Shown piece after piece: positions 5,443 through 49,200 of a DNA stretch of 64,000 bases. The stretch is from an uncultured virus (IMG/VR IMGVR_UViG_3300021254_000023) (Duplodnaviria > Heunggongvirae > Uroviricota > Caudoviricetes): IMG/VR virus record IMGVR_UViG_3300021254_000023. One strand, given 5' to 3'. Below the pieces are notes generated by a model. It searched no databases and had not been told where the DNA came from. It worked only from the letters and a program-made list of their open reading frames with translations. Every line of letters starts with the position of its first letter. The stretch's first letter is position 1. The position numbers and the translations under genes are program-made.

Positions 5443-5537
5443 ATCACCTATAAGGTTGTGAGAAAATAAAAGGAGAAAAACTTCTCCTATTTTTTTTAGT
5501 CGCCGTCCTTTCAAAGTCCGGCTCCGCTGTTCATTAC

Positions 5538-10160: not shown

Positions 10161-11164
10161 TGCTATTTACAAGAGAGTATTATCCCGGGACTTATATAAA
10201 TGGGAATTATTATGTGACGGGAAATCCTACTACCGGGACAAGAATTAAAAGAACCCTTAGGGTGGGGGAGGATTTTAAACCTATCTTCCCAGATTCTATA
10301 GACTTAAAGATAACTGGAGTTTGTAAGAAGGGCTGTCCTTTCTGCCATGAAGATTCTAGTCCTAATGGAAAAGTAGCTAACTTAGAGAATCTTAAGGCAT
10401 TTCTAGAACCACTCCCAAAGGTTGGAATAGAGGTTGCCATTGGTGGAGGAGATATATTTACTTGTCCTGACCTGACATATGACCTAGTTAAATGGTTGAT
10501 TGGTAATTTTCAACCGCGACTAACAATATCTTATCAGAATTATGAAGAATTAGCCGATACTGTTGTGGGAGGAGTACTAAACTATACTAAATTCCCCGAA
10601 GGTTCTATTGAGGAAAAATTAGCTTATCTCCTAGAGGAAATTCCTATCGGGGTAAGTCTAAATAAGTACGTAGAAAATCCTATTCCAGATCAATTAGTAT
10701 CGTCTTCTTTCCATTTTAGTGGAGATAGGATAGTGTATCATGTTATTGTCGGGGTTATTAATCCAGAAGATCTTTGGGCTATGTGGATAAGTAAAGCCCG
10801 TTATAAGAAAATACTCGTCTTAGGATTTAAACAATTCGGTCGTGGTATATCCTATAATATTCCGGATTTAACTAGGACAAGGGAGGTTATAGAACGAATA
10901 CTTACTCGCCAAAAGAATCTTTTCACTGGGGACCTAAAGAAGGTTATCGCTTTTGATAACTTAGCCATAGAGCAACTTGGAATAAAAGACCTACTTCCTA
11001 AAGAAGAGTGGGATTTATTCTATCAGGGGGATGAATTTACTGCTTCTATGTATGTTGATGCCGTAGAAGAAACTGTAGCTCCCACCTCAAGAACCCCAAA
11101 ACCCGAAAGAATCTCCTGGAAAGATACAACAATTTTAAAGTACTTTAATGAAAACCATCGCTAA
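10157..11164 (+). CDS. Radical SAM protein 1
   Basis: CKKGCPFCHE (CxxxCxxC), EVAIGGG; ATGA overlap with upstream gene. Confidence 0.9.
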   Translation: MMLFTREYYPGTYINGNYYVTGNPTTGTRIKRTLRVGEDFKPIFPDSIDLKITGVCKKGCPFCHEDSSPNGKVANLENLKAFLEPLPKVGIEVAIGGGDIFTCPDLTYDLVKWLIGNFQPRLTISYQNYEELADTVVGGVLNYTKFPEGSIEEKLAYLLEEIPIGVSLNKYVENPIPDQLVSSSFHFSGDRIVYHVIVGVINPEDLWAMWISKARYKKILVLGFKQFGRGISYNIPDLTRTREVIERILTRQKNLFTGDLKKVIAFDNLAIEQLGIKDLLPKEEWDLFYQGDEFTASMYVDAVEETVAPTSRTPKPERISWKDTTILKYFNENHR

Positions 11165-15018: not shown

Positions 15019-17724
15019 TTACACTACCACAAATGCTTTTTTAGTAGTAGGATCGTAATCTACTGTAAAATTCATTGCATCTGGGGCGTCAATCATTGCT
15101 CGTCCGACTGAGTCTGTTACCCAGCGCTCTATATTACGATTAAGTTCACGTGCGCCAAGACCAGCTGTACATTCGTCGAGAACATGGTTTTTTAGAGCAG
15201 GAGTTACTTTTATCTTTAGGTGACTCTTATTGAGTTGCTTTTTAATTTTTTCTAGCTCTAAGTTAAATACCTTGCTTAGGTCATCTCTTGTGAAATGACG
15301 AAATACAATCTGTCTTGTAAGTCGATTCCTAAATTCAGGCTTAAACTTCTTCTCGATGGCCTTCTGAACAATCTCCTTGTCTTTGCTATGGCGCTCTTCA
15401 TCAGTTGGTTGTGTAAAGCCAACTCTAAGCTGAGATGCCACTTCTTTCGTTCCTATATTAGAGGTGAAGATTATAATCGTATTAGAAAAGTCAATCAGCT
15501 CACCACTACTCAGGTTAATACGTCCTTCATCGAGAATCGGAAGGAGCACGTCATATATATGTTCATTAGCCTTTTCAATCTCATCAAAGAGGAGGACACA
15601 AGATCCACCATTTGTGTCACGAACCTTGATAAGCTCACCAGACTCGTCACTTCTAACATAACCTGGAGCTGCACCCAAAAGTCGAGTTACATCAGCTTCA
15701 GAAGTCATGCTACTCATATCGAACCTTACTAAGGCTTTTTCAGTTCCATAGAAAATTTCTGCTAATTTCTTCGCCAGGTAGGATTTACCTACACCTGTTT
15801 CACCGGAGAATAAGAGTACGCCGTATGGCTTGTTAGCTGGTTTTACTCCAAGGACAGCTCTCTGAATACAGCCCATAACTTCATCAATGGCTTCTGGCTG
15901 ACCAATCACCGTCCGTGTTAACTCTTCACGCAAGAACTTCAGCTTCTCTCTATCGTTCTGAGCTACCTTGTCATACGGAATTCGGCTTATATTAGAGACG
16001 GCCATGATAACGTCTTTGTCCTCAACTTCGGTCCAATTAGCTCTTTTACTAGCTTCTTTGGCCATGGCCTTAGTCTCTCTTTCAATAACTTCATTCAAAG
16101 CTTTTTCCTCATTCCTGAGGCGTTCTGCTTCCTCGAAGTCCTGATCCTCCATGACAGCCTTCTTCTTAAGCTCAATGACTTCTGCTAGACGTTTCTCAGC
16201 TTCTGTCACGTTCTCTTTCTTTTCCGTGATTCGTTTCAGGGATGCCAGAGAACCAGCCATGTCCATGGTGTCGACAGCCTTGTCAGGGAAGTTTTTATCG
16301 GCCATATACTTACCACTCAACTCAACACAAAGGTCAAGAATGGCAGGTGTATAACGTACACGGTGGAACTTTTCATAATTACTAGAAATTCCTTTTAGAA
16401 TCTTTAGAGTTTCTGCTTGAGTTGGTTCCTCTACCATGACCTGAGTGAAACGTCGATTCAAGGCTTTATCCTTCTCAATATATTTACGATACTCAGCAGG
16501 GGTCGTTGCACCAATCATCTGGAATTCTCCTCGTGCTAAATAAGGTTTGAGAATATTACCAGTATCGTTCTGACCACCAGCCGAACCTGATACTAAAGTA
16601 TGAAGCTCATCTAAGGCAATGATAATATCTTTGTTATTGCATACTTCTTTAATGAGTTTCTGGAGTCGCTCTTCAAATTGACCACGATACTGCGTACCAG
16701 CTACTAGGTCATTGAGGTTAAGACTACATATCCTTTTCCCCTGAAGCTTCTCTGGAACATCCCCCGAAGCAATTCTCTGAGCGAGTTTTTCTATGATGGC
16801 AGTTTTACCAGTACCAGCCTCTGAGAGAAGAGCAATATTTGGTTTACGTCTTTTCAAGAGAATCTCTATCATAGACTCTACCACGTCATCTCTGCCTATA
16901 ACTGGATCAAATTCTCCGTTTGCTGCTTTCTTTGTCAGATCTACACTATAACGATCTAGGTTTGGAGTGTCAGAATTGGGGTCTAGTTCAGTTCCATCTA
17001 TGGCTTCATGACGACCTGCCTCTTCAAATTCTTTTTCCTCATCTCCTTCGTTATTTCTTCCATTATTAGCTTGTGGAGTAGGAATAGTACCTCCTGATTT
17101 TTCTAAGATTTCTCCTATGAATTTTTCTGCTTCAGCTGGATTTCCTTCGGTTACTGTCTTCACCAAAGAATCCATAAGACCAGCTACGTTTTTAGCATCT
17201 GCTTTTCTATTAGATACCATTATTTCATATAATACTTTAGATTCAAATCCCTCCATATGAAGGTATTCAATACAATCCTCGTCTTCTCCATCTAATTTAA
17301 GTGCTGCCATGAGAACGACGTCTGTATCAAGTTCGCTCATTCTTTCAGGGAAGAGTTGTTTACTTTCCCCTAAGGCATCGTCAAAGATATCCTTCATGTT
17401 ATCACTTAACATTATCATCGTAGGATCGAACAGGTCTAAGTCGTCACTGTATGTTGGTGCGACCTCCTCTTCAGTATCTGTTAATCCTGCTAGAGCTTCT
17501 AGGATTCTCTTTTTATCAGGATCTTTTAACCCCGAAAAGAAATCCTTCACAGATTTGTTATATTTCCTGTCGGCTCCTTTCCCACTAAAATAGTAGTAGA
17601 ACAGGCTATAAATAAAATTACCGACTGTAATTTCTGCAATCTTTGCTTCTTGTGCCGCTTGGTAAGAAGCTTTTAGAATTTTTGTTAATTCTTCTGTGTT
17701 ATCAAAAAATTTCATTCTTTTCAT
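15019..17724 (-). CDS. clpC: ClpC/ClpA/ClpB-family AAA+ chaperone
   Basis: Two NBDs ([25 protein letters not shown]), DPVIGR, PDKAVD, UVR-like middle segment [10 protein letters not shown]. Confidence 0.9.
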
Positions 17725-27721: not shown

Positions 27722-29203
27722 ATGTGTGGAATATTTTCGATAATTAACTCGAAACCACGTAAATTTGACTATACGACCTTCTGCGTATTAGGAGTTAACA
27801 ATGACTCTCGCGGAGGTGATAGTTGTGGAGTATTCATTGACGGACTTTGGGAAGTTGGAGTAGATAAGAAAAAAGAATTCCGAGACTTTTTTAAAGAAAG
27901 TTCTGTCTTGAATCGTATAAAAGGTAAGAATGTAAGTATTGCCCTTGGACATTGCCGAAAGGCATCTGTCGGTGGCATATCAGATAAGACGGCTCAGCCG
28001 GTTGTCTTAACAGATAAAGCTGGAAATGCTAAATTCGTAATGATTCATAATGGTACTATTCATAATTATGAAGAGCTAGCCAAAAAGTACATTCCGAAGG
28101 TAGACATTAAAGGCTTAACTGATTCTCAGGTTATGGCCAGAATATTCTATTACAAAGGATATGATTGTCTGGCTGAATATAACGGTGGATCAGTATTTCT
28201 GATCGTAGATTATAGACAACCAGAGCCAAAAATCCTCATTTTCAGAGGAGCTAGTAAGAAGTATTCAACTTCTACAACAATTGAGGAAGAAAGACCATTC
28301 TATTTCATTCAGAACAAGAATGAGTTTGTCTGCTCATCAATCGACAAGTACCTAGAGGTATTACGTCCAGACGACGAAGTATTTACCGTTGAGGATAATG
28401 TACTAATTCAAGTACTTCCAGGCGATATTGTAAATATTAAGTCTTATGATCGAAGCAATTGCCAGCAAAGCAAAGTTTATGCAAGCAGTAGCAGTTCTTC
28501 TTCTTATGGAACTGTTTGGCAAGGCAATCAAGGCGGTAGTACGTATGGTGGTACCTACTATCAGGGTGGTGGATATCGTGGTAATGTTGGTGTTGGACAC
28601 ACAACTCCAGCGGTAGGTTCAGAAACTAGTAAAGGAGGCACGTCAACGGGGAGCTCTATTGACAGAGTTACTTCAGTTGGGCCCAAGTTTCTCAGACCAG
28701 ACAAAAAAACCAACATCTACTTCACAGACAAAGCCAAGACAATCCCCGCCCACGGGCAGCTCTCAATCAACGACTTCGGCCGGATGTACACAGGAGAAGC
28801 TTCCAAAGAGGAATCCTCACATACGGTCAAAGAAATCTGGTTTTTTAATGGGGTTGCTCTCCTGGATGTTGAGTACTTTAGATTCCTCGAGTTCGCATTA
28901 AAGAAATCAAAGATGGATAAGGACGAGTTTATGAAAAAGTACCAGAATCTGATTAGATTCGTGAGTCTTGATAAGCTCTACCCCGCGAACGGATCATTCC
29001 ATCTTGCGACAGGTTTCTCTTCTCATAGACCATTCACTGGTGAATTCCAGATGATAGGCGATTCGTTCGTTAGTGAGTTTAAGGACGGTCAAACTTCATG
29101 TTATCGAAACATAAAGAATTATGACCATCCACTAGACCTCTTAGGAACCAAAGGAATAAGTGTAACCAAACTCTATAAACGATGCAAGTCATTGATGAAG
29201 TAA
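27722..29203 (+). CDS. Class II (Ntn) glutamine amidotransferase
   Basis: N-terminal MCGI, RGGDSCG, GHCRKAS, HNGTI, DSQ. Confidence 0.9.
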   Translation: MCGIFSIINSKPRKFDYTTFCVLGVNNDSRGGDSCGVFIDGLWEVGVDKKKEFRDFFKESSVLNRIKGKNVSIALGHCRKASVGGISDKTAQPVVLTDKAGNAKFVMIHNGTIHNYEELAKKYIPKVDIKGLTDSQVMARIFYYKGYDCLAEYNGGSVFLIVDYRQPEPKILIFRGASKKYSTSTTIEEERPFYFIQNKNEFVCSSIDKYLEVLRPDDEVFTVEDNVLIQVLPGDIVNIKSYDRSNCQQSKVYASSSSSSSYGTVWQGNQGGSTYGGTYYQGGGYRGNVGVGHTTPAVGSETSKGGTSTGSSIDRVTSVGPKFLRPDKKTNIYFTDKAKTIPAHGQLSINDFGRMYTGEASKEESSHTVKEIWFFNGVALLDVEYFRFLEFALKKSKMDKDEFMKKYQNLIRFVSLDKLYPANGSFHLATGFSSHRPFTGEFQMIGDSFVSEFKDGQTSCYRNIKNYDHPLDLLGTKGISVTKLYKRCKSLMK

Positions 29204-30441
29204 CAAGAAATGAAGTCAACTCCAAGAACTGCAAACGAATAATCGTTGGCTGGGAGAAAGAAGGAGGTTGGATAGAAGGATATACCTCTCATGTAGATAA
29301 GTGTATTTCAGCATGTATTCGATATAAAGATGGAAGAACCGAGGAACGTCTAATTTTAGGTGATTCTGAGGCTGGTAAGAATGTATTCTTCAGTAATCTC
29401 AATGGATACTACATGTGTCGGTTGGGAATGGATAACGAAACCTACATAAGAGAGAGATATACTAGAGGTCATGGTGGATTTCCGTATCACTTTGAAAGAA
29501 GATACGAAGCCGTGGAGAATTTCAGTCTTTTTAATCGAAAACAAAAGGTTATTGAGACAAAGAAGACGAAATATCCTATCTCTAAACACTTGAAGTATAC
29601 ATTCGGTCTAGAGTTTGAGACCAGCGAAGGTTATATTCCAGAGGATCTCTGTTTTAGAGACGGATTGATTCCTCTTAGGGATGGTTCTATTAGTGGCCTT
29701 GAATACTCGACGGTCGTTCTAGAAGGGAATAAGGGTATATCTCTGCTTCATCAAAGTCTTCATGACTTGAGAAAGTTTACTGGTTTTAACAAGGAATGTT
29801 CTTTACATATTCATATGGGAGGATATCCACTTGAACCAGATAAGATATATGCCCTCTACGTGACGTGTTTTCGCCTCCAATCAGCCCTTCAGAATATCTT
29901 ACCTGCTCTCACATTTCGCACAAGCAAATACAAAGCGAGTGGAAAAGACTATTGCAACTTAATGCCAGCGTTCTATAGCTTTGATGAATTATTTCAAGGA
30001 CTAGTAGGACGTAGGTATATGGGATCGTTGGTACAGCCACACCCCAATGATCTAGAAAGAAAAAGAAAGTGGCAAATAACTACACGCTATTACTGGTTGA
30101 ACTTGATCAACATGATCTGTTATGACATTAACAAAACGGTTGAATTCAGGTTCCTTAGACCTACTTACAATTTTAGAAAGATAGTGACGTGGATCTATAT
30201 ATTCAATGGTATCCTTAAGTTCTGTGAGGAAAATTGGAGATTTATAAGTCACGACTTAAGCAAGCCTCTGTCTCTAGTAGATGTCATGAGGCGAGCATAT
30301 CCAAGAGAAGTTGCTGATAAGATTGAAGGCGAGATTGTAAAGTTGTCTATTCTCGTACAGAATCAGCACAAAAATGGTGATAATATTGGCCAGGATATTT
30401 CCTTTGAGGAAGAGTTGTTCCCTGAGGATATCCTACTATAG
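29182..30441 (+). CDS. Putative amidoligase
   Basis: FGLEFET, RDGSI..LEY, CSLHIHMG, RYYWLN, TVEFR. Confidence 0.85.
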   Translation: MQVIDEVTRNEVNSKNCKRIIVGWEKEGGWIEGYTSHVDKCISACIRYKDGRTEERLILGDSEAGKNVFFSNLNGYYMCRLGMDNETYIRERYTRGHGGFPYHFERRYEAVENFSLFNRKQKVIETKKTKYPISKHLKYTFGLEFETSEGYIPEDLCFRDGLIPLRDGSISGLEYSTVVLEGNKGISLLHQSLHDLRKFTGFNKECSLHIHMGGYPLEPDKIYALYVTCFRLQSALQNILPALTFRTSKYKASGKDYCNLMPAFYSFDELFQGLVGRRYMGSLVQPHPNDLERKRKWQITTRYYWLNLINMICYDINKTVEFRFLRPTYNFRKIVTWIYIFNGILKFCEENWRFISHDLSKPLSLVDVMRRAYPREVADKIEGEIVKLSILVQNQHKNGDNIGQDISFEEELFPEDILL

Positions 30442-32832: not shown

Positions 32833-33096
32833 TTATGCTTTTTTATGAATTGTTACTCGTCTGATCTTTAAATTAGCATCCCACTCACATTGTGGACACT
32901 CAAGTTTAATCGTACCTTCAATTACTTCAACATCTTGAAGCTGCTCTAATTTCTGGATCTGCTCATCGCTAAGATCTGAGTTTAGAGTAATGTGGATAGG
33001 ATGACCACAAGCTGGACAATGATCTTTATCCTGGTCGTCAAAAATACGCCCATCCTTAGTAGTTCCTTTAATTCGTAATAGATCTTTAATTTCCAT
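32833..33096 (-). CDS. Zinc-ribbon protein
   Basis: CPAC...CPQC. Confidence 0.65.
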   Translation of the reverse strand: MEIKDLLRIKGTTKDGRIFDDQDKDHCPACGHPIHITLNSDLSDEQIQKLEQLQDVEVIEGTIKLECPQCEWDANLKIRRVTIHKKA

Positions 33097-35008
33097 ATTC
33101 TTTTAATTGTTTAAACCATTCATATTGATTAGCATCACTTGGCATTCTCCAATCTCCTCTTGGACTTAATGAGATTGAACCGATCTTAGGTCCGTCTGGA
33201 AGACAACTCCTCTTGAACTGTTGACTAAAGAATCTATTGATGAATACCTGTAGCCATTGCTTAAGATCGGCCCTTGTATATTCTTTACTCCAGCCCTCCT
33301 TAGTATGTTCAGCTATGTACATAATCTTGGCAGGACCGTAACCATGACGAAGCATATTGTATAGGAAAAAGTCGTGAAGCTCATAGGGACCGATTTTATC
33401 TTCCGTTACCTGAGCATCTTTTCCATCTGCACCAGATCCAGTAAGTTCTGGACTAACTGGAGTATCTAGGATATCTTCAAGTGTATTATAAAGCTCTCTA
33501 TTAGATACCATGATCCAGCTGGCATACCATCCAATAAGCTTCTTAATAAGAGTCTTTGGAACGCTAGCGTTAACGCCATACATACTCATGTGATCGGCAT
33601 TATAAGTACACCAACCTAAGGCAAGTTCTGACAAATCACCAGTACCAATAACCAATCCTTTTTCTTGATTAGATAGGTTCATGAGAATTTGTGTTCTACT
33701 ACGTGCCTGTACATTTTCATATGTAACATCTTGTGTATCCAAGTCATGACCAAGAGCCCTAAGCTCGGCTGTAGCCATATCAACGATACTTACCTCTCTA
33801 GCATCTATTCCAAACGCCTTCATGAGAGTCCAAGAATTCTTCTTTGTTCTTTCACTGGTTGCAAATCCAGGCATGGTTACACCAATTATATCAGATACTG
33901 GATTTTTAAGCATCTTCATTGCCTCTACCGCTACAATTAAAGCCCAAGTAGAGTCTGAACCGCCTGAAATTCCAATAACCGGCTTCATGCCAGTATGATA
34001 CAACCTTTTAGCAAGGGCGGCAGACTGCATGATAAGTATGTCTTTACATCTTTCATCTAGTTCTTTACCCATTGGTACAAACGGCTTGGGATTCCACTTT
34101 CTTACTGTATCACCTTCCCCGAGGATAGCTCCAGGAATCTGACATTTTGTCACATCTTTTGGATTATGCTCGGAGCGGAACTGACGGAATGTCGTATTGA
34201 TAGCACGCTCATTTCTAATAGACTCTAGGTCAATGTCGTTTATTACAATCTGACCGCCAGTATTAACAATCAAGTTTCTATTATTTTGAGCCAAGAGCTT
34301 GCCATTCTCAAAGATTAATGCATTTCCTTGATAGGATAGGTCTTGGGTAGATTCTCCAAAACCAGAACTAGCATATACATAACCACAAATATGATCCGCA
34401 CTTCTTTGACGAAGCATGGACATTAGATATTGATGTTTTCCAATAAGTTCATTACTTGTTGAAAGGTTAAATATGACCTCAGCTCCAGCCTGTACTAGTG
34501 TTGTACATGGAGGACAGGGAGACCAAACATCTTCACAAATTTCTACTCCAAACCTTACACCATCCTCAGTTTCAAAAATTCGAGGAGGAAGATTATCACA
34601 ACTAAACCATCTAGGTTCATAAAACTCTTTATAGCCGGGAAGATTCCGTTTTCCAACGGCTTTGATTACCTCTCCTTTGTGGATAACTAGTGCTGTGTTG
34701 AAAATAGGCTCATTATTATCTGCTCGAGCTGGGGCGCCAATTATGATAACCTGTCTATGATTTTTGGTATAATCACAAATATCTGCAATACCTTTTTCAG
34801 CGGCCTCTAAAAGGCACTCTTGGAAAAATAGGTCTCCACACGAATAGCCAGTTACACAAAGCTCTGGAAAAACGATTACATCAACTCCCTGGTCTTCTGA
34901 CCTATCAAGGAGTTCTTTTATTTTACTAATATTGTAGGATACATTTCCTACGGTTACTTCTGGAATAGCTGCCGCTACTCTTAACAGTTTTGCTTGTTTT
35001 CTGTTCAT
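33086..35008 (-). CDS. nadE: Glutamine-dependent NAD+ synthetase
   Basis: Nitrilase domain (FPEL, EICED) plus GISGGSDST, ENVQAR, GTGDLSE, SQQFKRSCLPDGPK. Confidence 0.95.
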   Translation of the reverse strand: MNRKQAKLLRVAAAIPEVTVGNVSYNISKIKELLDRSEDQGVDVIVFPELCVTGYSCGDLFFQECLLEAAEKGIADICDYTKNHRQVIIIGAPARADNNEPIFNTALVIHKGEVIKAVGKRNLPGYKEFYEPRWFSCDNLPPRIFETEDGVRFGVEICEDVWSPCPPCTTLVQAGAEVIFNLSTSNELIGKHQYLMSMLRQRSADHICGYVYASSGFGESTQDLSYQGNALIFENGKLLAQNNRNLIVNTGGQIVINDIDLESIRNERAINTTFRQFRSEHNPKDVTKCQIPGAILGEGDTVRKWNPKPFVPMGKELDERCKDILIMQSAALAKRLYHTGMKPVIGISGGSDSTWALIVAVEAMKMLKNPVSDIIGVTMPGFATSERTKKNSWTLMKAFGIDAREVSIVDMATAELRALGHDLDTQDVTYENVQARSRTQILMNLSNQEKGLVIGTGDLSELALGWCTYNADHMSMYGVNASVPKTLIKKLIGWYASWIMVSNRELYNTLEDILDTPVSPELTGSGADGKDAQVTEDKIGPYELHDFFLYNMLRHGYGPAKIMYIAEHTKEGWSKEYTRADLKQWLQVFINRFFSQQFKRSCLPDGPKIGSISLSPRGDWRMPSDANQYEWFKQLKEYGN

Positions 35009-35459: not shown

Positions 35460-35792
35460 TTACCACGATTCAATAAAAGTATAGACGTAAGCCGGATTGC
35501 TGTTATCATCAGATCCGAAAATATCATCTACGTAATATGATTTCTTTGGAACATATCCGGAGTCCATTGGCTCAATTCTGTATCCAATTAGATGGTTTCC
35601 TCGAACTACTTCAACTAGACGAAATCCTTTTGGTAATCTAATTATTGCCCTTTGTCTAGCATCTTTTGTAGGCTCTGCTGTATAATCTTCCAGTGCTACA
35701 GTACTTTCCCTAACTTCTGTGTTACCGCTACAGCTCGCGCTAAGGACTAGCACTAGAACTAGACTACCAACTTTCAATAATTTCTTTAACAT
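35460..35792 (-). CDS. Lipoprotein (paralog A)
   Basis: SASC lipobox; EDYT..IRLPKGFR..MDSGYVPKKS..IESW shared with neighbour. Confidence 0.75.
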   Translation of the reverse strand: MLKKLLKVGSLVLVLVLSASCSGNTEVRESTVALEDYTAEPTKDARQRAIIRLPKGFRLVEVVRGNHLIGYRIEPMDSGYVPKKSYYVDDIFGSDDNSNPAYVYTFIESW

Positions 35793-36078
35793 ATGTATGC
35801 TCTGTATCATTGTACCTTTGATATATTATACTTTTCTTAGGGACATAACCGGAATCCATTTCTGTCATAGCAATAATGATGGCACTTCCACTTTCTTTGC
35901 TAAATCCAGAGAACCGGAATCCTTTAGGAAGACGTATAGTTTCTTTTTCACAGCTCCCCGGTGGCGTATTTCCAGTATAATCTTCTATTATTGTTTCAGT
36001 TTGTTTGGGTACGTCATTAGGTTCATAACACCCAACAAATAATGTTGCTATTAAAATTGCAAATACTGTTTTCTTCAT
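35764..36078 (-). CDS. Lipoprotein (paralog B)
   Basis: FVGC lipobox; same shared motifs as neighbour. Confidence 0.75.
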   Translation of the reverse strand: MKKTVFAILIATLFVGCYEPNDVPKQTETIIEDYTGNTPPGSCEKETIRLPKGFRFSGFSKESGSAIIIAMTEMDSGYVPKKSIIYQRYNDTEHTYVKEIIESW

Positions 36079-36128
36079 ATCATAAGTAAGGTATTCCTTA
36101 TTCATGATAAAACAAAAGGAAGAAGATT

Positions 36129-37525: not shown

Positions 37526-37558
37526 CTCTCCCTTTTTTATTTCGGAACCTCATGGGTT

Positions 37559-38053
37559 TTACTTTATTATAAACTCTCCTTTTCCGTTTAGCCACTTATT
37601 GCGATAGTTTTTCTTGTAGCGAAGACATTTAATAACCTCTTTAAAATGACCTAATTCCTCTGTCGGAAACTTAACACGTATGCTTAGACTGGACCTAGTA
37701 AGCATCATCTTCACGTCATCACCAAGAGTATAATACTGTCTCATCTTGGCTGCCTTTTCATTCCTCCCAGAGCGAGTAGCAGTCAATCCAATGACATCAC
37801 CATCTAGTTCATTAATATCATCAAATCCGTGCCCAATCAAATAAGATGAGATCTCTTTCTGCGCCTCCTCAGATCTTACATGAATAGTAATTACACACAA
37901 GTTGGAATCCAAAGATAATTGAAATAGCCGTTTAAGATCCCTCTGATTGATGTCTTGATCATTTTGATAATGTAAGAATGGGTAAACCTCAATGAGGCCG
38001 AATTCTTGTTTTTCTCCGTTACTCGGATTGTCGATTTTTAATAAGTTCTCCAT
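37559..38053 (-). CDS. Hypothetical protein
   Basis: 164-aa ORF with promoter motif. Confidence 0.7.
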   Translation of the reverse strand: MENLLKIDNPSNGEKQEFGLIEVYPFLHYQNDQDINQRDLKRLFQLSLDSNLCVITIHVRSEEAQKEISSYLIGHGFDDINELDGDVIGLTATRSGRNEKAAKMRQYYTLGDDVKMMLTRSSLSIRVKFPTEELGHFKEVIKCLRYKKNYRNKWLNGKGEFIIK

Positions 38054-38146
38054 GTCTTTTTAAATAATTAATGTTTGTACATACATAAGAATTTCACAAA
38101 ACTCTTATTAATGTCATAGGACTAATTCCTTTGATTAATTAAAATT

Positions 38147-38620
38147 ATGATTAGTAACAAAATTGATGAATTAATTTCGGAAGCACGTAGTTCTGGAAAC
38201 AAGGAACTACTGAAGGTATTAACCTTGATTAAGGCGGAACTTCAGAAGACAAAAACCGCCAAGAATAGGAAAACTACTGGTGAACTAACAGAGGTGGAGG
38301 AAGCAAGAACCCTAATCGCTATGGTAGAACAGAGAAAAGGTTCTATCGACGAATACGTAAAAGGTAAGCGAGAAGATTTAGCAGAAGCTGAACAAAAAGA
38401 GATTGATATTATTCAGCCGTACATCCCAGAGTCTCCCACCGAAGAAGAGCTTAAAGAGTACATTGCTGGAGCGATAACTGCCTATAAGACGACAAAAGAG
38501 GATGGTTATGCATTAAGCATGAGGGATATGAAACCTCTGATTGAAATCGTTCAGGCTAAATATCCGACAGCTCCAGGTAAGCTAATCAGTAGTACGCTTC
38601 AGGGTATCTTAAGAGGATGA
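38147..38620 (+). CDS. GatB/YqeY domain protein
   Basis: LIKAEL, QRKGSIDEY..GKREDLAEAEQKEIDIIQPYIP, MRDMK. Confidence 0.85.
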   Translation: MISNKIDELISEARSSGNKELLKVLTLIKAELQKTKTAKNRKTTGELTEVEEARTLIAMVEQRKGSIDEYVKGKREDLAEAEQKEIDIIQPYIPESPTEEELKEYIAGAITAYKTTKEDGYALSMRDMKPLIEIVQAKYPTAPGKLISSTLQGILRG

Positions 38621-39159
38621 AACCGCTTATTGCTAATCAGTATTGCCCGGAGTTCCTAGAAAAGTGGGAATCTCTTCGAGGGTGGATTAATCAGGCTCGT
38701 TCCAAAACATGGCAAGGATTCTTCTTTGGCCTAGATTTAATCGGGACGGTTGTGTTTACCGTGATAAGTACGGTTGGTGTTTTTGGTGTCTTCGGAGAGC
38801 CTCTTAAGTGGTTTGGTATTCTTAACCTCCTTCGGGTGACGATAAGTCTGATAATGATTGGTATAGTATCAAGTCAGGTACTAGATCGAGGACGAATACC
38901 TCTCGCACAAGGACCAAGTAATGTCACACAAGTGCTATATTGGATTTTATATGCGTCGTCTCATGCCGCAATTATAATAATTGCTAATGGAGATTCGCAA
39001 ATGTCAATAGGAGCTAGGTGGCTTATCTTTGGACTATTCTGGTCTAAAATAATAAATCTGAATCATAAAAAAGATTTCGACCTACAGGATGCTTTTATAG
39101 GAGCGCCAAAATTCCTCTTAAAGGATATTCCTAAATGGATTAAAAACCGGGTTTCATAA
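38617..39159 (+). CDS. Membrane protein
   Basis: About four hydrophobic segments. Confidence 0.65.
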   Translation: MKPLIANQYCPEFLEKWESLRGWINQARSKTWQGFFFGLDLIGTVVFTVISTVGVFGVFGEPLKWFGILNLLRVTISLIMIGIVSSQVLDRGRIPLAQGPSNVTQVLYWILYASSHAAIIIIANGDSQMSIGARWLIFGLFWSKIINLNHKKDFDLQDAFIGAPKFLLKDIPKWIKNRVS

Positions 39160-39197
39160 AACTCGGCTTTTTATTTTTGAACCCCTTATTAACAGAT

Positions 39198-39545
39198 ATG
39201 AATGAAATAAAACTACATGAACTAGTAGCAAATGTATTTAAAGATTATCCATACAGCGCATGTTTGTATATAGGAAAATATAGGTTTAAAACAGAAGGGG
39301 ATACTGTTCCTGAAGTAGATGTATGTTTCCCGTGGGAAGCAACTGATATAGAAGATATACCTTTTTCTGTTTATAGTAGAGGACCAATTATCACGACTAA
39401 GCCAAAAGAGAGTATAGATAAATTACTTATGTTCTTCTTGGATGATAGTCCAACGAATTATTTTACGATGGTCCACAGAGAAGCCGGTAAAGATTATTAT
39501 ATGTACATAAATAGACATTCAGATATATACATAACAAAAGGATGA
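39198..39545 (+). CDS. Hypothetical protein
   Basis: ORF with promoter motif upstream. Confidence 0.65.
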   Translation: MNEIKLHELVANVFKDYPYSACLYIGKYRFKTEGDTVPEVDVCFPWEATDIEDIPFSVYSRGPIITTKPKESIDKLLMFFLDDSPTNYFTMVHREAGKDYYMYINRHSDIYITKG

Positions 39546-40111
39546 TTAAAGTAAAAAGTATCACTGACGTTATTACTAATTCAAGTACGGAGGTATTTGT
39601 TTTGAAATTAACAAGCAAAGAAGCAGAGTGGCTCGAGAATGTAAGAATAACTTCCGCAAGAAAAGCTTTGAAAGCCAATAAGGAAAACAAACAATGGCTT
39701 AGACGTTTAAATGAGGAAGATAGGAAGGACTATACTTCATTAGATTTTCTAATGGATGAAGTAAGTGATTGTACAGTCATTCTAGCGCCATGTTTTACTA
39801 GAGAGGGCCTCTTGTGGGGATTATCCAGTAAAGAGGATAAGAAAAATCTTTGGGTTAATAGTGACTGGGAATATATCAGAAAAATTATAGGCGGTAAAGC
39901 CATCGAAGAGACAGACGAGGATCCACACTTTAGGCCATTTAATAAGTGGCTAGCAGACAATATTGATTGGATCTCTGAAAAGATGAAAGATGTCTGGTTA
40001 ATGGAGGTTAATAACTATGATGAAAAGATTTATGAAAAGTTAGACCTCTATGCTCACATAGATAACATACCGCACGATAAAAAAGTTCTATTTTATGAAT
40101 GTAGGCATTAA
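39542..40111 (+). CDS. TNSS-motif protein A
   Basis: N-terminal KSITDVITNSSTEVF; C-terminal YECRH. Confidence 0.8.
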   Translation: MIKVKSITDVITNSSTEVFVLKLTSKEAEWLENVRITSARKALKANKENKQWLRRLNEEDRKDYTSLDFLMDEVSDCTVILAPCFTREGLLWGLSSKEDKKNLWVNSDWEYIRKIIGGKAIEETDEDPHFRPFNKWLADNIDWISEKMKDVWLMEVNNYDEKIYEKLDLYAHIDNIPHDKKVLFYECRH

Positions 40112-40514
40112 AAGCATTACCGACGTCATAACCAACTCTAGTACAGAAGTATTCGTAGTTAGAAAGAAAGGTAAACAAGTAGCTGAAAATGGTTACTTTT
40201 CTGGAATAAATACGCCACAGTCTGTTAACTGGGAACCCAAGGAGATAACTTGGAAGTGGTTAAGATCAAATCAGGGGAAGTCTGAATGGATGATGATATG
40301 TGACCTAGTCGATAAGCCATATACTGAGCTATCAACTTCCGGAGAGGAGCCCAGTTGGGGTAGATGGAATGATTGGATTACTATTCACAAACATAGAATT
40401 CAGGACAGAGCTATTGGGTTATGGTTCTTAACTATTCGAGACGGATTCGGTGGATTCCTAGATATGGTGAAGGATATAAAAGATTACATTGTCTGGCATG
40501 AATGTAGGCATTAA
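40095..40514 (+). CDS. TNSS-motif protein B
   Basis: N-terminal KSITDVITNSSTEVF; C-terminal HECRH. Confidence 0.8.
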   Translation: MNVGIKSITDVITNSSTEVFVVRKKGKQVAENGYFSGINTPQSVNWEPKEITWKWLRSNQGKSEWMMICDLVDKPYTELSTSGEEPSWGRWNDWITIHKHRIQDRAIGLWFLTIRDGFGGFLDMVKDIKDYIVWHECRH

Positions 40515-40791
40515 GAGTAAGACAGATATCATAACCAATTCTAGTACGGAGGTTTATGAAATTGTTGTTAATGGTTCCCCGAAAAGAATTGAAGGAATAC
40601 TTCAGGGGATCTTAGATACTCTTGATTGGGTTGGACATGATATAGCTACAATGACGGTCAAAGAGAATATTATAACTTTGACTGGTTGTGAGGACAATTC
40701 TATCCCACTTCCCTTGATAGACTTATTAGAGAAAGGAAAGTTTAAAGAGTGGTTTAGTGAAATTAGTGAAATTAAAAATAAAAGAATATGA
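40498..40791 (+). CDS. TNSS-motif protein C
   Basis: N-terminal KSKTDIITNSSTEVY; EDNSIP motif; ATG at 40498. Confidence 0.8.
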   Translation: MNVGIKSKTDIITNSSTEVYEIVVNGSPKRIEGILQGILDTLDWVGHDIATMTVKENIITLTGCEDNSIPLPLIDLLEKGKFKEWFSEISEIKNKRI

Positions 40792-41906
40792 AAAATTTTA
40801 CAGGCTGGGGAACAAAAATTAGAAGAGACCTTAGCAAGAATTACTATGCCATATGGCAAAATCTAGTAACAACACGACTTGACCTAGGGGATGATATTGC
40901 CCTAGAACCAGAGAAATCTGAGTTCATGGATGTTGGAATAACTTCTAGGTGTAATGCATGTTGTCCGTTCTGCTATGTCAGTGCAAGCGATAAAGGTCTT
41001 GATTACAAGAACATTGCCAAGACATGGAAAAAGTGGATGGCAACAATGCCCGCTGATAGACCAATTGATCCGAATCTTCTTTCCGAGGACGACCCTTTAA
41101 AGGAAGTTTTTGACGATAAAAGAACTCCGAAAGAACTGCTCTTAGATATAGCAGAGATTGGAGCTGGAAAAAAGAAGACTAATGATGCAGGAGAAGGAAT
41201 AGATGACCTAGAATTAATTCTTAAGATCAAATCCTTTACTGCGTTAGGACTTCCACTGGTAGAAACATTTAGGCCTTATCAGATAGCTTGTGGTTCGATT
41301 GGTGAACCTACAATTCATCCAGAATTTGTAGAATTTTTACAAGCTGTTTTTGAAACTGGCGTAGTTCCAAATTATACAACAAATGGAATTGTACTATCAG
41401 ATTATAGAACACAGGAATGTAAAGATCTTTTAGAAGCAACTAAGCAATTCTGTGGTGGTGTGGCGGTTAGTTTTGGTAATAAGAAACTTCACCCACATGC
41501 AAGAGTAGCTATAGAGAACTTAATCCTATACGGGGAGTGCAAAGTAGTCATACATCATCTCATAAGCGACAAAGCTAGTGTGGACGACATGATTAACCTA
41601 GCCAAAGAGTATAAAGACCGACTCCATTATCACGTCCTATTGCCGCTTATGGCACATGGTCGCAGTAAGGAAGGTTTACAGGAAGGCGTTTTCGAGTATA
41701 TGTATGAAAGATGTGAAGAGGAAGATGTGACAAACCTAGCTTTCGGTGCTAACTTTGCTCCACAGCTAAAAGCACATCCAGACCTTTTCCCAGTCTATGA
41801 GTATCCTCGGGAGATTTATAGTAAAAACGTACTTCTCCAGGAAAACAAAGTCATAATAACACCAAGTAGTTTTAACTTAAAGCCATGCAAGACGATAGAG
41901 TTGTAG
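40788..41906 (+). CDS. Radical SAM protein 2
   Basis: CNACCPFCY (CxxxCxxC), GEPTIHP, YTTNG; ATGA overlap with TNSS protein C. Confidence 0.9.
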   Translation: MKNFTGWGTKIRRDLSKNYYAIWQNLVTTRLDLGDDIALEPEKSEFMDVGITSRCNACCPFCYVSASDKGLDYKNIAKTWKKWMATMPADRPIDPNLLSEDDPLKEVFDDKRTPKELLLDIAEIGAGKKKTNDAGEGIDDLELILKIKSFTALGLPLVETFRPYQIACGSIGEPTIHPEFVEFLQAVFETGVVPNYTTNGIVLSDYRTQECKDLLEATKQFCGGVAVSFGNKKLHPHARVAIENLILYGECKVVIHHLISDKASVDDMINLAKEYKDRLHYHVLLPLMAHGRSKEGLQEGVFEYMYERCEEEDVTNLAFGANFAPQLKAHPDLFPVYEYPREIYSKNVLLQENKVIITPSSFNLKPCKTIEL

Positions 41907-42032
41907 ATTTTACCACGTGTGCCGGAATTGTAGATTTTTATAGTTCTTGCCGAGCACCAACCGAGAGAGAAAAACTTAAGAGAAGTCTTAAAATGGATAA
42001 CGATACTTGGGAAATATATGAAGCTTGGTTAG

Positions 42033-42551
42033 ATGGAAAGAGTGACGACTGGCTTATCCTGTCCTGAAGAGATTTTCAAAGCATACTCAGGACTGGTCAT
42101 CTCTTGGGATAGCGTTAGGAGATCTGTTAAGGATCTCTATGGCCTATCCCTTCAATTTATAAGTCAAAAGTTCAAGGAATGGTTGAACGATAAGACCGTT
42201 GATGGGAACGTGGTCCTAAGGATTCTTGAAACGGCTAGAAAATCTTCACATAGAGATTTCATAGTAGGATCTTATGATCTTAAGATGTGGACGGCTGGTG
42301 AAGGTAAGGACAATGGCTGGATTAATGTTGGAGGGTTGGTTTTCGAGAATGGTAGGTTTCCAGGATTTATTATGAGAGGTACAGATTACGGTACATATTG
42401 TACTATTAAACCTCCATATCTAATGACTAAACGTCAGTACTTGCTGAACAATAGTTATGAAAGATCAATGAGGCGAAAATGTAAAGAATTCGCTGAGAAA
42501 GTGCTCGAAGAACAAAGAGCCAAACCTAGACTTCAAATGGTATATTGGTAA
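42033..42551 (+). CDS. Hypothetical protein
   Basis: 172-aa ORF. Confidence 0.65.
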   Translation: MERVTTGLSCPEEIFKAYSGLVISWDSVRRSVKDLYGLSLQFISQKFKEWLNDKTVDGNVVLRILETARKSSHRDFIVGSYDLKMWTAGEGKDNGWINVGGLVFENGRFPGFIMRGTDYGTYCTIKPPYLMTKRQYLLNNSYERSMRRKCKEFAEKVLEEQRAKPRLQMVYW

Positions 42552-43415: not shown

Positions 43416-45611
43416 ATGGAAGCAATAAGAAAATTATTACAAGAACAGTTTAAGAATCTCCTAGCAACCGGACACCTATTCCGGTCTAACATTGAGGGAG
43501 ATTTGTTGTGGATGGCTTACATCGAGGGATTCAATAACGATCCCATCTTCCGTGCAACAAATAGTTCAGTACATAACTGTAACTACTGTCACAACTTTGT
43601 ACGCCATTACGGACCTATCGTAGCGATTAATCAAAACTATGAGCTAATTTCTTTGTTCGATATAGAAAATGATAAGATCCCTGACGAATATAAGAAATCT
43701 ATCAAGGATATGCATGATTTGATCCATGCACAGGGAAAGGTAAAAGATATTTTCATAGAATCTTTTGCCCATCTCTCTGATCCACGTATCCCTTACGAGG
43801 AGAATCCGAAAAATAATCAACCCACTTATCGAATCGGTGTCGAACATAATATTAAGAGATATCTGGCAGAAGATGTGGCTAGATGGCCGAATTCAGGAAT
43901 CCAGGTAGGTCACGTTGAGACATTCCGTCACTTCTACTTAGACTTACCACGTGAATACGTTAACTTTGGTTCAGAATCCAGAGAAGAAATAATGTCCATT
44001 AAGAGAAGTACGAAGGAGGCATTTCAGCGTATTCTGAACGAAGTTAGTCCCGACGTCATGCAGCTCGTTATAGAGTTGGAAGAACAGGGGAGCTTACTCA
44101 ATGCAGCACAATATATGCCTTCTCTCAAGAAGTGTCTGGAAGTAGCTGAACAATATCAATCACTTGGAAGCAAGCAGCAAGACAACTTTGTATGGATTCA
44201 GAGTCTGGAAAATCGTGGTGCAGTCATTAAGGCTAGTAGCGCCATGGGTAAATTGCTTGAAGCCCTCGCTGATGGAGAAACCAGCCTAGAGAAAGCATGT
44301 GAGGACTATAACTATAGAGTTGATCCTGCTAACTATCGTCGAGCAACTGCTCCTGTCTCAAAAAGCGCCATCCTGAAAGCACAGGAGTTCATTGAGAAGA
44401 ATGGATTTGAAGAGTCCTTCATTCGTAGATGTGCAACTATCGAGGATATTCAAGCTGACTTGGTTCTCTTCAGTAACCAGACTGAGACACAGACCAAGAC
44501 AAAAGTATCGATTTTCGATAACCTGAAACCGACGGCTGTTGCCAAGACAAATAACATGGCCAAAGGATTTGACAAGCTGAAGAAAGTTCCTATTGATGCA
44601 TTCATGGCTGACTTCTTGCCGAGATGTGAGAATGTAGAGGTTTATTTGGACAATATTCACAAGAATAATTTCATGACCCTCCTCACCTCGAACAACAAGG
44701 ATAGCAAGAGGATCTTCAAGTGGATGAACAACTTTAGCTGGTCCTATGTTGGTGGCAATGCAGGTAAGTCTATGATCAAGACGGCCGTTAAACAGGCTGG
44801 TGGTAATGTAGAAGCACCGTTCAGATTCTCTATCATGTGGAATGAAGATTGGCAGACGAATCCCGTCACAGTGGATTTTGATGCCCATGCTATCGAGCCC
44901 AATGGTGTAGAGATATTCTACTCAACTCCCTATCGAAAAGATAGAGGTAATCAGATGACTCCATGTTCAGGACAGCTGGATATCGACATGATCAATCCTC
45001 CAAGGACTGGCGTTGAGAATATCTACTGGACCAATACTGCCCGACTGAAGGACGGTAAGTATGTACTATTTATCAATAACTTTGGTGGTACAAACCGTGG
45101 ATGTAAAGCTGAGATATTCATCGATGGCGTGACCTACCAATATCATGTTACCAAGGCCTTCAGAAACAAGGAGAACCAGACCATAGCAGAGGTTTGGATC
45201 AAGGATGGACATCTCCAGAAGATCGACCACTCTCAGTGGCTGGTTAAGGAAGAAACAAAACGGGAAACTGTATACGGACTGGATACATGTCAGTTCCATC
45301 CCGTTAGCCTAGTTTGCGTAAGTCCTAACTACTGGCAAGAGCAAGGAGTAGGTAATAAGCATTACTTCTTCATGCTGAAGGGCGCTAAGGCCCCGGAGAA
45401 GATTCGTTCCATCTACAACGAATTCTTGATCCCAGAACTCTATAACTACCGAAAGGTGTTGGAAGTTCTTGGTAATCAGCTGAAGGTAGACTCTACACCA
45501 AACCAGTTGTCTGGTCTTGGCTTCAACGCTACTGTACGAGACGAAGTTGTTGTTCGCTTAACGGGCGACTTCGAAAATAATAAACAAAAACTCATTAAAG
45601 TAACATTCTAA
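43416..45611 (+). CDS. Large conserved phage protein with HNCNYC motif and YfaP/DUF2135-like domain
   Basis: HNCNYCHNF; DFDAH...GQLDIDM...VENIYW; GNKHYFF; LSGLGF. Confidence 0.75.
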   Translation: MEAIRKLLQEQFKNLLATGHLFRSNIEGDLLWMAYIEGFNNDPIFRATNSSVHNCNYCHNFVRHYGPIVAINQNYELISLFDIENDKIPDEYKKSIKDMHDLIHAQGKVKDIFIESFAHLSDPRIPYEENPKNNQPTYRIGVEHNIKRYLAEDVARWPNSGIQVGHVETFRHFYLDLPREYVNFGSESREEIMSIKRSTKEAFQRILNEVSPDVMQLVIELEEQGSLLNAAQYMPSLKKCLEVAEQYQSLGSKQQDNFVWIQSLENRGAVIKASSAMGKLLEALADGETSLEKACEDYNYRVDPANYRRATAPVSKSAILKAQEFIEKNGFEESFIRRCATIEDIQADLVLFSNQTETQTKTKVSIFDNLKPTAVAKTNNMAKGFDKLKKVPIDAFMADFLPRCENVEVYLDNIHKNNFMTLLTSNNKDSKRIFKWMNNFSWSYVGGNAGKSMIKTAVKQAGGNVEAPFRFSIMWNEDWQTNPVTVDFDAHAIEPNGVEIFYSTPYRKDRGNQMTPCSGQLDIDMINPPRTGVENIYWTNTARLKDGKYVLFINNFGGTNRGCKAEIFIDGVTYQYHVTKAFRNKENQTIAEVWIKDGHLQKIDHSQWLVKEETKRETVYGLDTCQFHPVSLVCVSPNYWQEQGVGNKHYFFMLKGAKAPEKIRSIYNEFLIPELYNYRKVLEVLGNQLKVDSTPNQLSGLGFNATVRDEVVVRLTGDFENNKQKLIKVTF

Positions 45612-46024
45612 TGTACAAAAAAGCAACACGACTGAAGCTCCGCTTCAATGTAGGAAATGGCCCCCTGACTGTTGATCAGCTTTGGGACATCAACATGAAT
45701 AGCCTGAAAAAGGTTGTAGAAGTAACTCACAAGCAGCTCAAGGAACTGTCCCAGGCCAATGACGACGATGATCTCGCCTTCCTCGAGTCTGAAACTCCCG
45801 TCGAGAACAAGGAGTTGGATCTGGCTAAACTCCGTTTCGAGATTGCCAAGGACGTCTATGTGACTCGCCGTGATGAGCGTACAGCTGCCAGCGAAGACGC
45901 TAAAACTGCCGCTGAGATCCAGCATCTGGAGGAAGTTCTGGCTCGTCGAAAGGAACAGGAATTGGAGAATCTCAGCTCAGAAGAACTCGAGAAGAAGATT
46001 GCTGCTCTTCGTGAGAAAAAGTAA
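45611..46024 (+). CDS. Conserved phage coiled-coil protein
   Basis: MYKKATRLKLRF..GPLTVDQLWD; follows previous gene. Confidence 0.75.
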   Translation: MYKKATRLKLRFNVGNGPLTVDQLWDINMNSLKKVVEVTHKQLKELSQANDDDDLAFLESETPVENKELDLAKLRFEIAKDVYVTRRDERTAASEDAKTAAEIQHLEEVLARRKEQELENLSSEELEKKIAALREKK

Positions 46025-48012: not shown

Positions 48013-49200
48013 TTAACCTTTCAGAACAGCTATTGGACTGAGATGAACCAATGGCTTAACCAAGTCCTTCTCATTCTCCAGGACCTCTTCAATGTTCTTA
48101 TAGGCAGAACCAGCCTCTTCAAGGTCCCTCCTACTTCGAATAGCATGGATAATTCCCTTCTCCTCCATCATAGCACATTCTTTATCAAAATCAATCGTAT
48201 TGACGGCCTCAGTTCTAGACATCTTACGACCTGCTCCATGTGAGCAAGACTCATAAGAATCAGGGTTCCCTAAGCCCTCAACAATGAAGCTACCACTACT
48301 CTGGCTACCGGGGATAATACCAATCTCACCGAGTCCAGCACGAGTGGCTCCCTTACGGTGGACAATACACTTAATGCCAAAGTGTTCCTCATATGCTGCA
48401 TAGTTGTGATGAATATCAATGGGCTCTTCATGAGTCATATCAGGACATACATCCCCAATGACTTGGAGAATACGATCCATCATAAGCTTTCGATTAGCAC
48501 GGGCCCATTCTAAGGCAAATTCCATTTCATGCCAGTAGGCATCGAATTCTGGTGTACCTTCGGGGAGGAATGCTAAACGAGCTTCAGGGTCTACAGCCGA
48601 GAAATACTTCTTATTCAGGTCTTTGGCTATGGCCTCGTACTCTGAGAACAATCGACCACCAACACCACGAGAACCCGAATGAACCATGAGCCAAAGGTTA
48701 TCGTTGTCATCCTTTTGAAACTCGATAAAGTGATTGCCGGCCCCGAGTGTACCAAGTTGTTTTCTGACCAGCTTATTCCAACCATTTCCCTTTGTAATCA
48801 TAGGAAGTGTAGCAGGATCCCAACCTTGTGGGAGGAGTTCCTCATCTTGAAGAGTCTTCTGCGGCTCATCTCCTATCACGACAACTTTGCGTGTGCCACG
48901 CATAAAGCCCTTACGAATCACTTCTGGTGTGAGAGTGGAGGCCTTAATGTTTGTCTTGACAGCACGCATGCCACAGCCGCAATCTGAGCCAATTGCAATA
49001 GGGACAACAACACCTAACAGTGGCATAACTGCGCCGATACTAACTGATGCGCCGGCATGCATGTCAGGCATATAAGCAATTCCTTCGGGGTGAATGAAGG
49101 GAAGTTTAGAAGCGTTTTCTACTTCAACCCAAGCACGGGCATCTGCTGATGTTGCCCAAATTTTAATTTTAGTTCCGTTTAATGTTACAGATTTCATCAT
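48013..49200 (-). CDS. rtcB: RtcB-family RNA ligase
   Basis: MPDMHAG, DCGCGM, GTLGAGNHFIE, HSGSRG, HHNY, HRKGAT, SHGAGR, AYK. Confidence 0.95.
   Translation of the reverse strand: MMKSVTLNGTKIKIWATSADARAWVEVENASKLPFIHPEGIAYMPDMHAGASVSIGAVMPLLGVVVPIAIGSDCGCGMRAVKTNIKASTLTPEVIRKGFMRGTRKVVVIGDEPQKTLQDEELLPQGWDPATLPMITKGNGWNKLVRKQLGTLGAGNHFIEFQKDDNDNLWLMVHSGSRGVGGRLFSEYEAIAKDLNKKYFSAVDPEARLAFLPEGTPEFDAYWHEMEFALEWARANRKLMMDRILQVIGDVCPDMTHEEPIDIHHNYAAYEEHFGIKCIVHRKGATRAGLGEIGIIPGSQSSGSFIVEGLGNPDSYESCSHGAGRKMSRTEAVNTIDFDKECAMMEEKGIIHAIRSRRDLEEAGSAYKNIEEVLENEKDLVKPLVHLSPIAVLKG

Follow-up and report, generated by a model that had tools for sequence, protein, structure and literature searches.

Tagged ferredoxin-like proteins and their paired radical SAM enzymes: a candidate protein-modification module of large phages

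Why would a phage place the same short peptide at the start of several otherwise different proteins, and encode these proteins directly upstream of a radical S-adenosylmethionine (SAM) enzyme? The question is raised by the window analyzed here, a 64,000-nucleotide stretch of an uncultured Caudoviricetes virus (IMG/VR record IMGVR_UViG_3300021254_000023). In this window, three tandem plus-strand genes encoding proteins A (39542-40111, 189 aa), B (40095-40514, 139 aa) and C (40498-40791, 97 aa from the ATG or 100 aa from an upstream TTG) are followed on the same strand by the gene for radical SAM enzyme 2 (40788-41906, 372 aa), with overlaps of 17, 17 and 4 bp between successive genes. The original prediction, made from the sequence alone, had described exactly this arrangement of overlapping genes and a CxxxCxxC enzyme, and the open reading frame (ORF) coordinates and overlaps confirmed it. 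The reading we favor, at a little better than an even chance, is that the enzyme docks the unfolded N-terminal tag and modifies its T-N-S-S motif, that the modified motif forms a working site together with an Asp or Asn and a C-terminal residue, and that one enzyme serves many such proteins.

The tags span 15 residues each, at 39554-39598 in A, 40110-40154 in B and 40513-40557 in C (all plus strand), with T-N-S-S at 39575-39586, 40131-40142 and 40534-40545, respectively; the asparagine is residue 13 of A. The near-identity of the N-termini that had been noted earlier holds at the protein level: the tags of A and B agree in 15 of 15 residues and that of C in 12 of 15. As 11 of the 15 codons differ between A and B, selection acts on the peptide, and the shared tag is not the product of a recent duplication of the DNA. 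Among aligned relatives, T13-N14-S15-S16 is invariant in the families of both B (103 of 103 rows) and C (97 of 97 rows). The residues upstream of it, K-S-x-x-D-V/I-I, are also conserved, in a form that depends on the class of tag and changes in step with the clade of the enzyme.

Three tag classes were scanned: class I (the type of A, B and C), class II (ETNSSSxH) and class III (FVSNSSSSSF), the search patterns for classes II and III being partly or wholly preset motifs. A looser serine pattern proved too unspecific. The degenerate class I pattern matched at least 134 stretches in IMG/VR, and a related pattern gave 11 matches in a close relative of the window (genome G001) compared to 0 with the reversed control. 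Both results put the tag far above chance expectation. Among 185,579 prokaryotic genomes only four stretches matched, all on short contigs (2.8-19 kb) of metagenome-assembled genomes, and the tag is therefore not counted as part of a cellular system. The distance of the asparagine from the N-terminus is nearly fixed in class III (residue 10 in 156 of 159 proteins) and class II (residues 12-13 in 125 of 131) and looser in class I (residues 10-27). Tagged proteins of class II make up PHROG 28997 and those of class III PHROG 7397 (RB16p111), neither family having an assigned function; A, B and C match neither. Some class III tagged proteins (loci L266-L345) carry Cys pairs directly after the tag (S-x-I-C-D-x-C), which suggests that this subset has a zinc-binding body unlike that of class I.

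Behind the tag, the proteins are neither uniform nor arbitrary. After removal of the tag and the strand that follows it, 98 of 102 representative proteins retained enough sequence for comparison, and their bodies formed recurring subfamilies named after their own C-terminal tails (HLG, YxC, LPY and RH), with body lengths of 80-270 aa across the tagged proteins. The body of B scored 38 bits on an RH profile built without B, and that of C 10 bits on an HLG/DNSIP profile built without C (0 of 200 shuffles as high in each case). Deeper profiles with the tag removed gave 68 bits for B and 24 bits for C (0 of 500 shuffles each); the deeper RH profile retained one relative 44% identical to B, whereas the 38-bit profile had no such row. 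Protein A, which ends in ExRH, matched the RH profile only weakly (5.7 bits, 10 of 500 shuffles as high) and is probably a divergent member of that subfamily. The earlier claim that the three proteins share nothing beyond the tag thus stands in part: the likeness of A and B in pairwise comparison is confined to the tag, and the RH and HLG family profiles align to one another over the tag only, but behind the tag, B and C are members of conserved subfamilies. No name was returned for A, B, C or any class I relative scanned in Pfam, NCBIfam and PHROGs, and examples of classes II and III received no meaningful name from Pfam or NCBIfam.

Structure prediction had been suggested as a way to see whether T-N-S-S and the ECRH or EDN residues form a single site. 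AlphaFold2 models of B and C (predicted local distance difference test, pLDDT, 86 and 74) both show a beta-alpha-beta-beta-alpha-beta arrangement from residue 17 to the end, with T-N-S-S at the start of strand 1 and pLDDT below 50 over residues 1-14 of B and 1-15 of C. The tagged proteins are thus predicted to be small ferredoxin-like domains whose first ~14 residues lie outside the fold, and a tag modeled as unfolded and yet conserved is what would be expected of a docking peptide. The most conserved residues of the tagged proteins continue straight from the tag into strand 1. Fold searches returned the PII protein 8wm7_E as the best match of B (Z 6.4, rmsd 3.7, 76 aligned residues) and the designed ferredoxin fold 6nuk_B as the best match of C (Z 8.2, rmsd 3.4, 80 aligned residues). 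These matches reflect a common arrangement and name neither a family nor a function. A Foldseek search of both models against BFVD found nothing at E 0.001 or better, a sequence search of the PDB with both family profiles nothing below E 0.4, and the ESM Atlas only unnamed viral clusters, under 0.9. A hit to AcrIIA4 in the PDB search (E 0.46) was rejected as chance-level.

If the tag addresses the enzyme, the two should occur together. We counted genes matching the enzyme-family profile within 3 kb of 80 flanked loci per scan. An enzyme was found at 56 of 80 class I loci (53 of them at 100 bits or more), 61 of 80 class II loci and 32 of 80 class III loci, compared to 0 of 80 unrelated P-loop control loci, which come mostly from unrelated viruses and are a poor match for large gut phages. 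When the loci were grouped into lineages at 70% identity of the tagged protein, 17 of 22 class I, 39 of 54 class II and 28 of 46 class III groups had an enzyme. Of the five class I groups without a neighboring enzyme, the four that were searched (all but L073) have one elsewhere in a member record; in G003 the enzyme lies 2 kb past the edge of the locus and in G005 about 200 kb away. The enzyme is also the most recurrent neighbor, represented by 78 distinct clusters where the runner-up family has 12, and the 28 most recurrent neighbor clusters within 3 kb, judged by their N-terminal sequences, included no recognizable protease or transporter. Such activities could be provided in trans. Genome G001 carries 11 class I tags in four clusters, a single class I enzyme and, in addition, a class II pair.

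The window likewise contains two systems. Besides the operon of A, B and C, it encodes a class II tagged protein (9096-10160, plus strand, 354 aa, tag ETNSSSSHS) coupled to radical SAM enzyme 1 (10157-11164, plus strand, 335 aa). The 354-aa protein is the longest tagged protein seen, the other class II proteins having 92-277 aa. A quick maximum-likelihood tree was built from 109 full-length enzyme rows, reduced to 62 at 85% identity; only rows of 230-480 aa that contain CxxxCxxC were admitted, and the profile used to collect them had been made from class I relatives. This tree splits by tag class in two changes, whereas shuffled labels needed 25.4 on average and none of 200 shuffles was as low, with support of 99, 100 and 71 for classes I, II and III. 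Enzyme 2 falls into clade I and enzyme 1 into clade II, each the class of the adjoining tag. The presence of two matched pairs in one genome argues that the match is not merely a product of phage ancestry.

The association also held when the search was started from the enzyme. Tags were found in four of five named phage regions, with one tag at the cyanophage Ma-LMM01, five each at Vibrio D479 and Lak-A1, and one, a variant, at the Thermus phage phiYS40. Across 50,697 GenBank phage records, a class III protein had 175 matches and a class III enzyme 172 (totals, not a record-by-record overlap), with near-equal genus counts that mostly represent one clade; the class I enzyme had no match among these records. 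In a Pfam search, two pseudo-T-even records appeared to carry tags with nothing but a short, NrdG-sized enzyme. This counter-example was dismissed once a direct protein search had located the class III enzyme in each record, ~20 kb away. Class III tags also occur in the Escherichia coli phage RB16, and the enzyme is encoded in a matching record.

Two further observations connect the tagged domain with the enzyme. In Salmonella phage Arash, gp146c is a fusion of a domain tagged with TNSSSSHS and the enzyme that follows it. Moreover, when enzyme 2 was modeled as a complex with B, the cluster and SAM, the prediction scored 0.51 (runs 0.51, 0.43 and 0.71), compared to 0.01 for the best of three controls. 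The mark used for such predictions was reached by 116 of 157 solved pairs and 2 of 215 mismatched pairs, and the range up to 0.60 holds 18 of the solved pairs and both mismatches. At least 40% of the contacts were common to the runs, and the pLDDT of the partner was at least 57. B is thus weakly predicted to bind enzyme 2. Both observations would also be explained if the tag were a docking handle and the tagged proteins were interchangeable adaptors or specificity subunits, themselves unmodified, that deliver a third substrate, such as a host protein, tRNA or nucleotide, to the enzyme. In keeping with this, regulatory and assembly modules (PII, ACT) are among the top fold matches, and 5 of 85 loci encode one each of the HLG, YxC, RH, LPY and long types, with subsets in many others. 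However, docking does not need four invariant small polar residues at a set distance from the N-terminus, the subfamily-specific tails ending in His, Cys, Asn or Gly resemble the ends of active sites, and the number of tagged proteins ranges from 1 to 11 per genome or locus. We think the adaptor explanation unlikely, though the least so of the alternatives.

These C-terminal tails had attracted attention before, as A and B both end in ECRH. In the other frame, the DNA of both ends also encodes the beginning of the following gene, M-N-V-G-I-K: the 17-bp overlap of A and B (40095-40111, plus strand) gives ExRH-stop when read in one frame and M-x-x-G-I-K when read in the next, and the same recurs between B and C (40498-40514). 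In close relatives, the end is ESRH or ENRH where the next gene begins with MKVGIK or MKIGIK. The idea that ECRH is purely an artifact of the overlap was rejected in part, because the His is kept without overlap as well: in 10 of 12 distant RH-type genes, the next ORF begins at or after the stop. Within the RH family (103 aligned rows), the final His (His139 of B, 40509-40511) is conserved in 92% and Asp116 (40440-40442) in 98%, whereas the Cys occurs in only 1 of 95 His-ending rows, namely B itself. The terminal His is therefore a real feature of the family by alignment, while the Cys is incidental and cannot be a conserved ligand. In the family of C, Asn67 and Pro70 are conserved, and the DNSIP motif lies at 40693-40707. 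A second RH-type stop region that doubles as the G-I of the next tagged gene's start was seen at about 1101-1123 of locus L541 (G002).

The original prediction had proposed, as an alternative, that the tag is a self-processing or metal-binding site completed by the C-terminal ECRH or EDNSIP. In the ferredoxin topology, the start of strand 1 adjoins the ends of strands 3 and 4, which would make T-N-S-S, Asp116 or DNS, and the terminal His neighbors. A site completed in this way, built on Asp116 and His139 in B or Asn67 and Pro70 in C, is thus partly supported by conservation and predicted topology, apart from the proposed role of the Cys, and fits with the idea of a single maturase. In its independent form, the proposal would have the tag cut itself at Asn-Ser or Ser-Ser, as Ntn-hydrolases or pyruvoyl enzymes do, or bind a metal or phosphate together with the Asp and the terminal His, the enzyme merely belonging to the same pathway. 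A disordered pro-piece that leads up to Ser residues where strand 1 begins, and the high conservation of Asp116 and His139, are what such a protein would show. Left unexplained, however, is the conserved K-S-x-x-D-V/I-I stretch that varies by class with the enzyme clade, and the 50 listed fold matches of either model, mostly ferredoxin-like, include no Ntn or pyruvoyl enzyme. We consider self-processing quite improbable.

On the maturation reading, the enzyme would recognize the N-terminal tag, probably through its own short N-terminal extension, and would remove a hydrogen atom from one of the residues in the invariant T-N-S-S motif, where strand 1 begins. Candidate products are an oxidized or cross-linked Ser or Asn, or a cut in the backbone that leaves a new reactive N-terminus. 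The altered residue would share its edge of the sheet with the subfamily-specific Asp or Asn that follows strand 3 and with the conserved C-terminal residue that follows strand 4, and these residues might jointly make up the working site. A single enzyme would serve many tagged proteins, including ones encoded far off in the genome, and as a guess, the mature proteins could be cytoplasmic enzymes of host takeover or counter-defense with differing targets. A bolder version, possible in our view but rather doubtful, is that large phages own a modular system that produces enzymes whose catalytic center is built after translation, in which one radical SAM enzyme turns the T-N-S-S of many ferredoxin-like proteins into a new protein-derived cofactor or reactive terminus completed by the C-terminal residue, with orthogonal pairs coexisting in a genome.

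What kind of enzyme could do this? The cluster motif of enzyme 2 (C55-x3-C59-x2-C62; 40950-40973) is conserved in at least 90% of 69 aligned relatives. Its match to PF04055 (23.5 bits, cut-off 29.5, E 6.8e-5) is interrupted by an insert, and 8 of 13 scanned relatives pass the cut-off. This acidic insert of ~70 aa (residues ~88-158; 41050-41260) lies between the cluster motif and a PYQIA motif, near the site of inteins in relatives. Intein or LAGLIDADG inserts occupy a common site in 6 of 14 longer enzyme relatives, which hints at steady selection on the gene. The family comprises 673 representatives at E 0.001 or better. No curated family or maturase model of NCBIfam fits enzyme 2 (best 28.7 bits, cut-off 380), the prokaryotic viperin model NF038283 gave 22.8 bits with a cut-off of 180, and neither a SPASM nor a PqqD/RRE match was found in Pfam or NCBIfam; SPASM-like cysteines are absent. 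The C-terminal region holds 6-9 cysteines in 11 of 12 class III rows, it is free of cysteines in 12 of the 17 class I rows and in 20 of the 33 class II rows, and one relative (P0141) carries a Pfam SPASM domain. From this we infer that the family probably derives from SPASM/twitch enzymes and has lost the auxiliary cluster. Searches of solved structures with the enzyme profile matched 5V1Q (E 3.1e-6), SkfB 6EFN (E 0.0026) and PqqE 6C8V (E 0.0057), over the core only (profile positions ~25-142).

A classical cluster for a peptide made on the ribosome and modified after translation (RiPP), in which the tag would serve as leader and the remainder, a variable core, would be modified, cleaved from it and set free as a small peptide, would account for the common N-terminus, the tandem genes and the SPASM-like cysteines of class III enzymes, but is very improbable given that the bodies are conserved folded domains of 80-270 aa. 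The same observation, together with the conservation running into strand 1 and the lack of a recurrent protease or transporter family among the 28 top neighbor clusters, leaves the leader-on-variable-core picture of the original prediction unsupported; its other half, one maturase for several substrates, gained support from co-occurrence, the matching clades, the many tags per enzyme, the fusion and the weak complex.

Several points weigh against maturation of the tag. An adaptor subunit that stays unmodified would account just as well for the co-occurrence, the matching clades and the fusion. The auxiliary-cluster cysteines on which oxidative peptide maturases normally rely are missing from most class I and II enzymes, and the best solved-structure matches include enzymes acting on non-peptide substrates, GDGT synthase and viperins. 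The proximity of T-N-S-S, the Asp and the C-terminal His is deduced from the modeled topology and not from distances. C ends just short of its family's HLG tail and B has RDG where its family has EDH, so that these particular copies may be degenerate or divergent. As for the genomic link, genome G004 (37% complete) has class I tags while the only enzyme found in it is of the class II type, G011 (20% complete) yielded no enzyme, and the enzyme region of phage Lw1 has no tag within 3 kb. Besides the poorly matched controls and the class I-based collection of the tree rows, three classes separated by two changes amount to few independent events, kin share labels, and the tree is a quick one with a support of 71 for class III.

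Among known systems, the nearest precedent compared is the HXS antiphage system, in which the radical SAM enzymes HxsB and HxsC mature the effector HxsA; the bacterial locus encodes these two enzymes, HxsD as a helper protein and one periplasmic effector with HxS repeats and a peptidoglycan-binding domain (PMC13128918). In HXS, as would be the case in the phage module, radical SAM enzymes act on a protein at a short Ser-containing motif, with N-terminal processing and a setting in the conflict of phage and bacterium. Unlike HXS, the module considered here is a phage operon with one enzyme, many small ferredoxin-like proteins and T-N-S-S. The operon has no Pfam domain of the HXS effector and is not a member of that system.

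SPASM/twitch maturases resemble the module in the radical SAM core, the conserved N-terminal peptide on putative substrates and the cysteines of class III, but here the substrates would be folded domains, and auxiliary cysteines are missing from the class I enzyme. Anaerobic sulfatase-maturating enzymes, which convert Ser or Cys into formylglycine, and glycyl-radical activating enzymes build a catalytic residue at a short conserved motif. The likeness lies in a radical SAM enzyme making a catalytic residue in a protein, which is a feature of those systems; their motifs and folds are absent here, with no family match in Pfam, NCBIfam or PHROGs. PII and 6nuk_B share the beta-alpha-beta-beta-alpha-beta arrangement of B and C, and members of PHROG 28997 and PHROG 7397 an N-terminal T/S-N-S-S-S tag paired with related enzymes. 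With RiPP clusters, the operon has in common a conserved leader on several precursor genes beside a putative maturase; in place of a short, variable and unstructured core, B and C have conserved and confidently folded bodies. By analogy, the module would work like leader-directed radical SAM maturation and yet stand outside RiPPs, SPASM maturases, HXS and viperins.

A literature search found no description of the tag/enzyme module, and a look-up of terms in PMC7824862, 10.64898/2026.10.24.761521 and PMC5780444 found no mention of radical SAM or gp128-130, supplements not being covered. The module is real, widespread and, in the literature searched, apparently undescribed. New here are the class I tag, the conserved subfamilies of folded bodies whose C-termini are conserved as well, and the finding that tag class and enzyme clade correspond within one genome. 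If the maturation reading is true, phages would encode their own branch of radical SAM protein modification, probably with a new Asn/Ser chemistry, and many ‘hypothetical’ proteins of gut phages, Lak megaphages, Ma-LMM01, phiYS40 and pseudo-T-even coliphages would share a common role. Protein engineering, too, could profit from a portable tag of ~15 residues for which three enzymes, apparently orthogonal, exist. As RB16 is a cultured phage with class III tags, the proposal can be tested directly.

Upstream of A lies an untagged ORF (39177-39545, plus strand, 122 aa from a TTG) that overlaps A by 4 bp and is probably the first gene of the transcription unit, with a terminator-like hairpin just 5' of it (39147-39166). 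Near-identical DNA is present in gut RNA libraries from several studies, and in one RNA run a single contig of 3170 bases covers 39210-42379 with zero differences, ending near the hairpin. This fits a single transcription unit, although contigs from RNA runs can derive from DNA. Promoter-like sites were rarer than expected from shuffles (11 compared to 16.1). The closest IMG/VR record, a 218-kb viral contig, has the same operon with an enzyme 96% identical, and the operon was also found on three metagenome contigs.

Elsewhere in the window, a class II glutamine amidotransferase adjoins an Amidoligase_2 gene (27722-30438), and together with an R2K ATP-grasp gene (4690-5541) these are further peptide- or protein-ligation enzymes of the phage. 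It also carries a glutamine-dependent NAD synthetase (33086-35008), RtcB (48016-49200), a ClpB/C-type ATPase (15019-17724) and YqeY (38147-38620). A pair of genes without assigned function (43416-46024) encodes a 731-aa phrog_1735 and a 137-aa phrog_2018 protein, whose contigs were among those of highest depth in three of four RNA runs, contig depth being unable to rank genes. Around a 164-aa minus-strand ORF, positions 37533-38068 formed a separate, deeper contig in three RNA runs. Finally, two tandem paralogues on the minus strand (35460-36105; 116 and 113 aa) have lipoprotein-like N-termini and both end in ESW.

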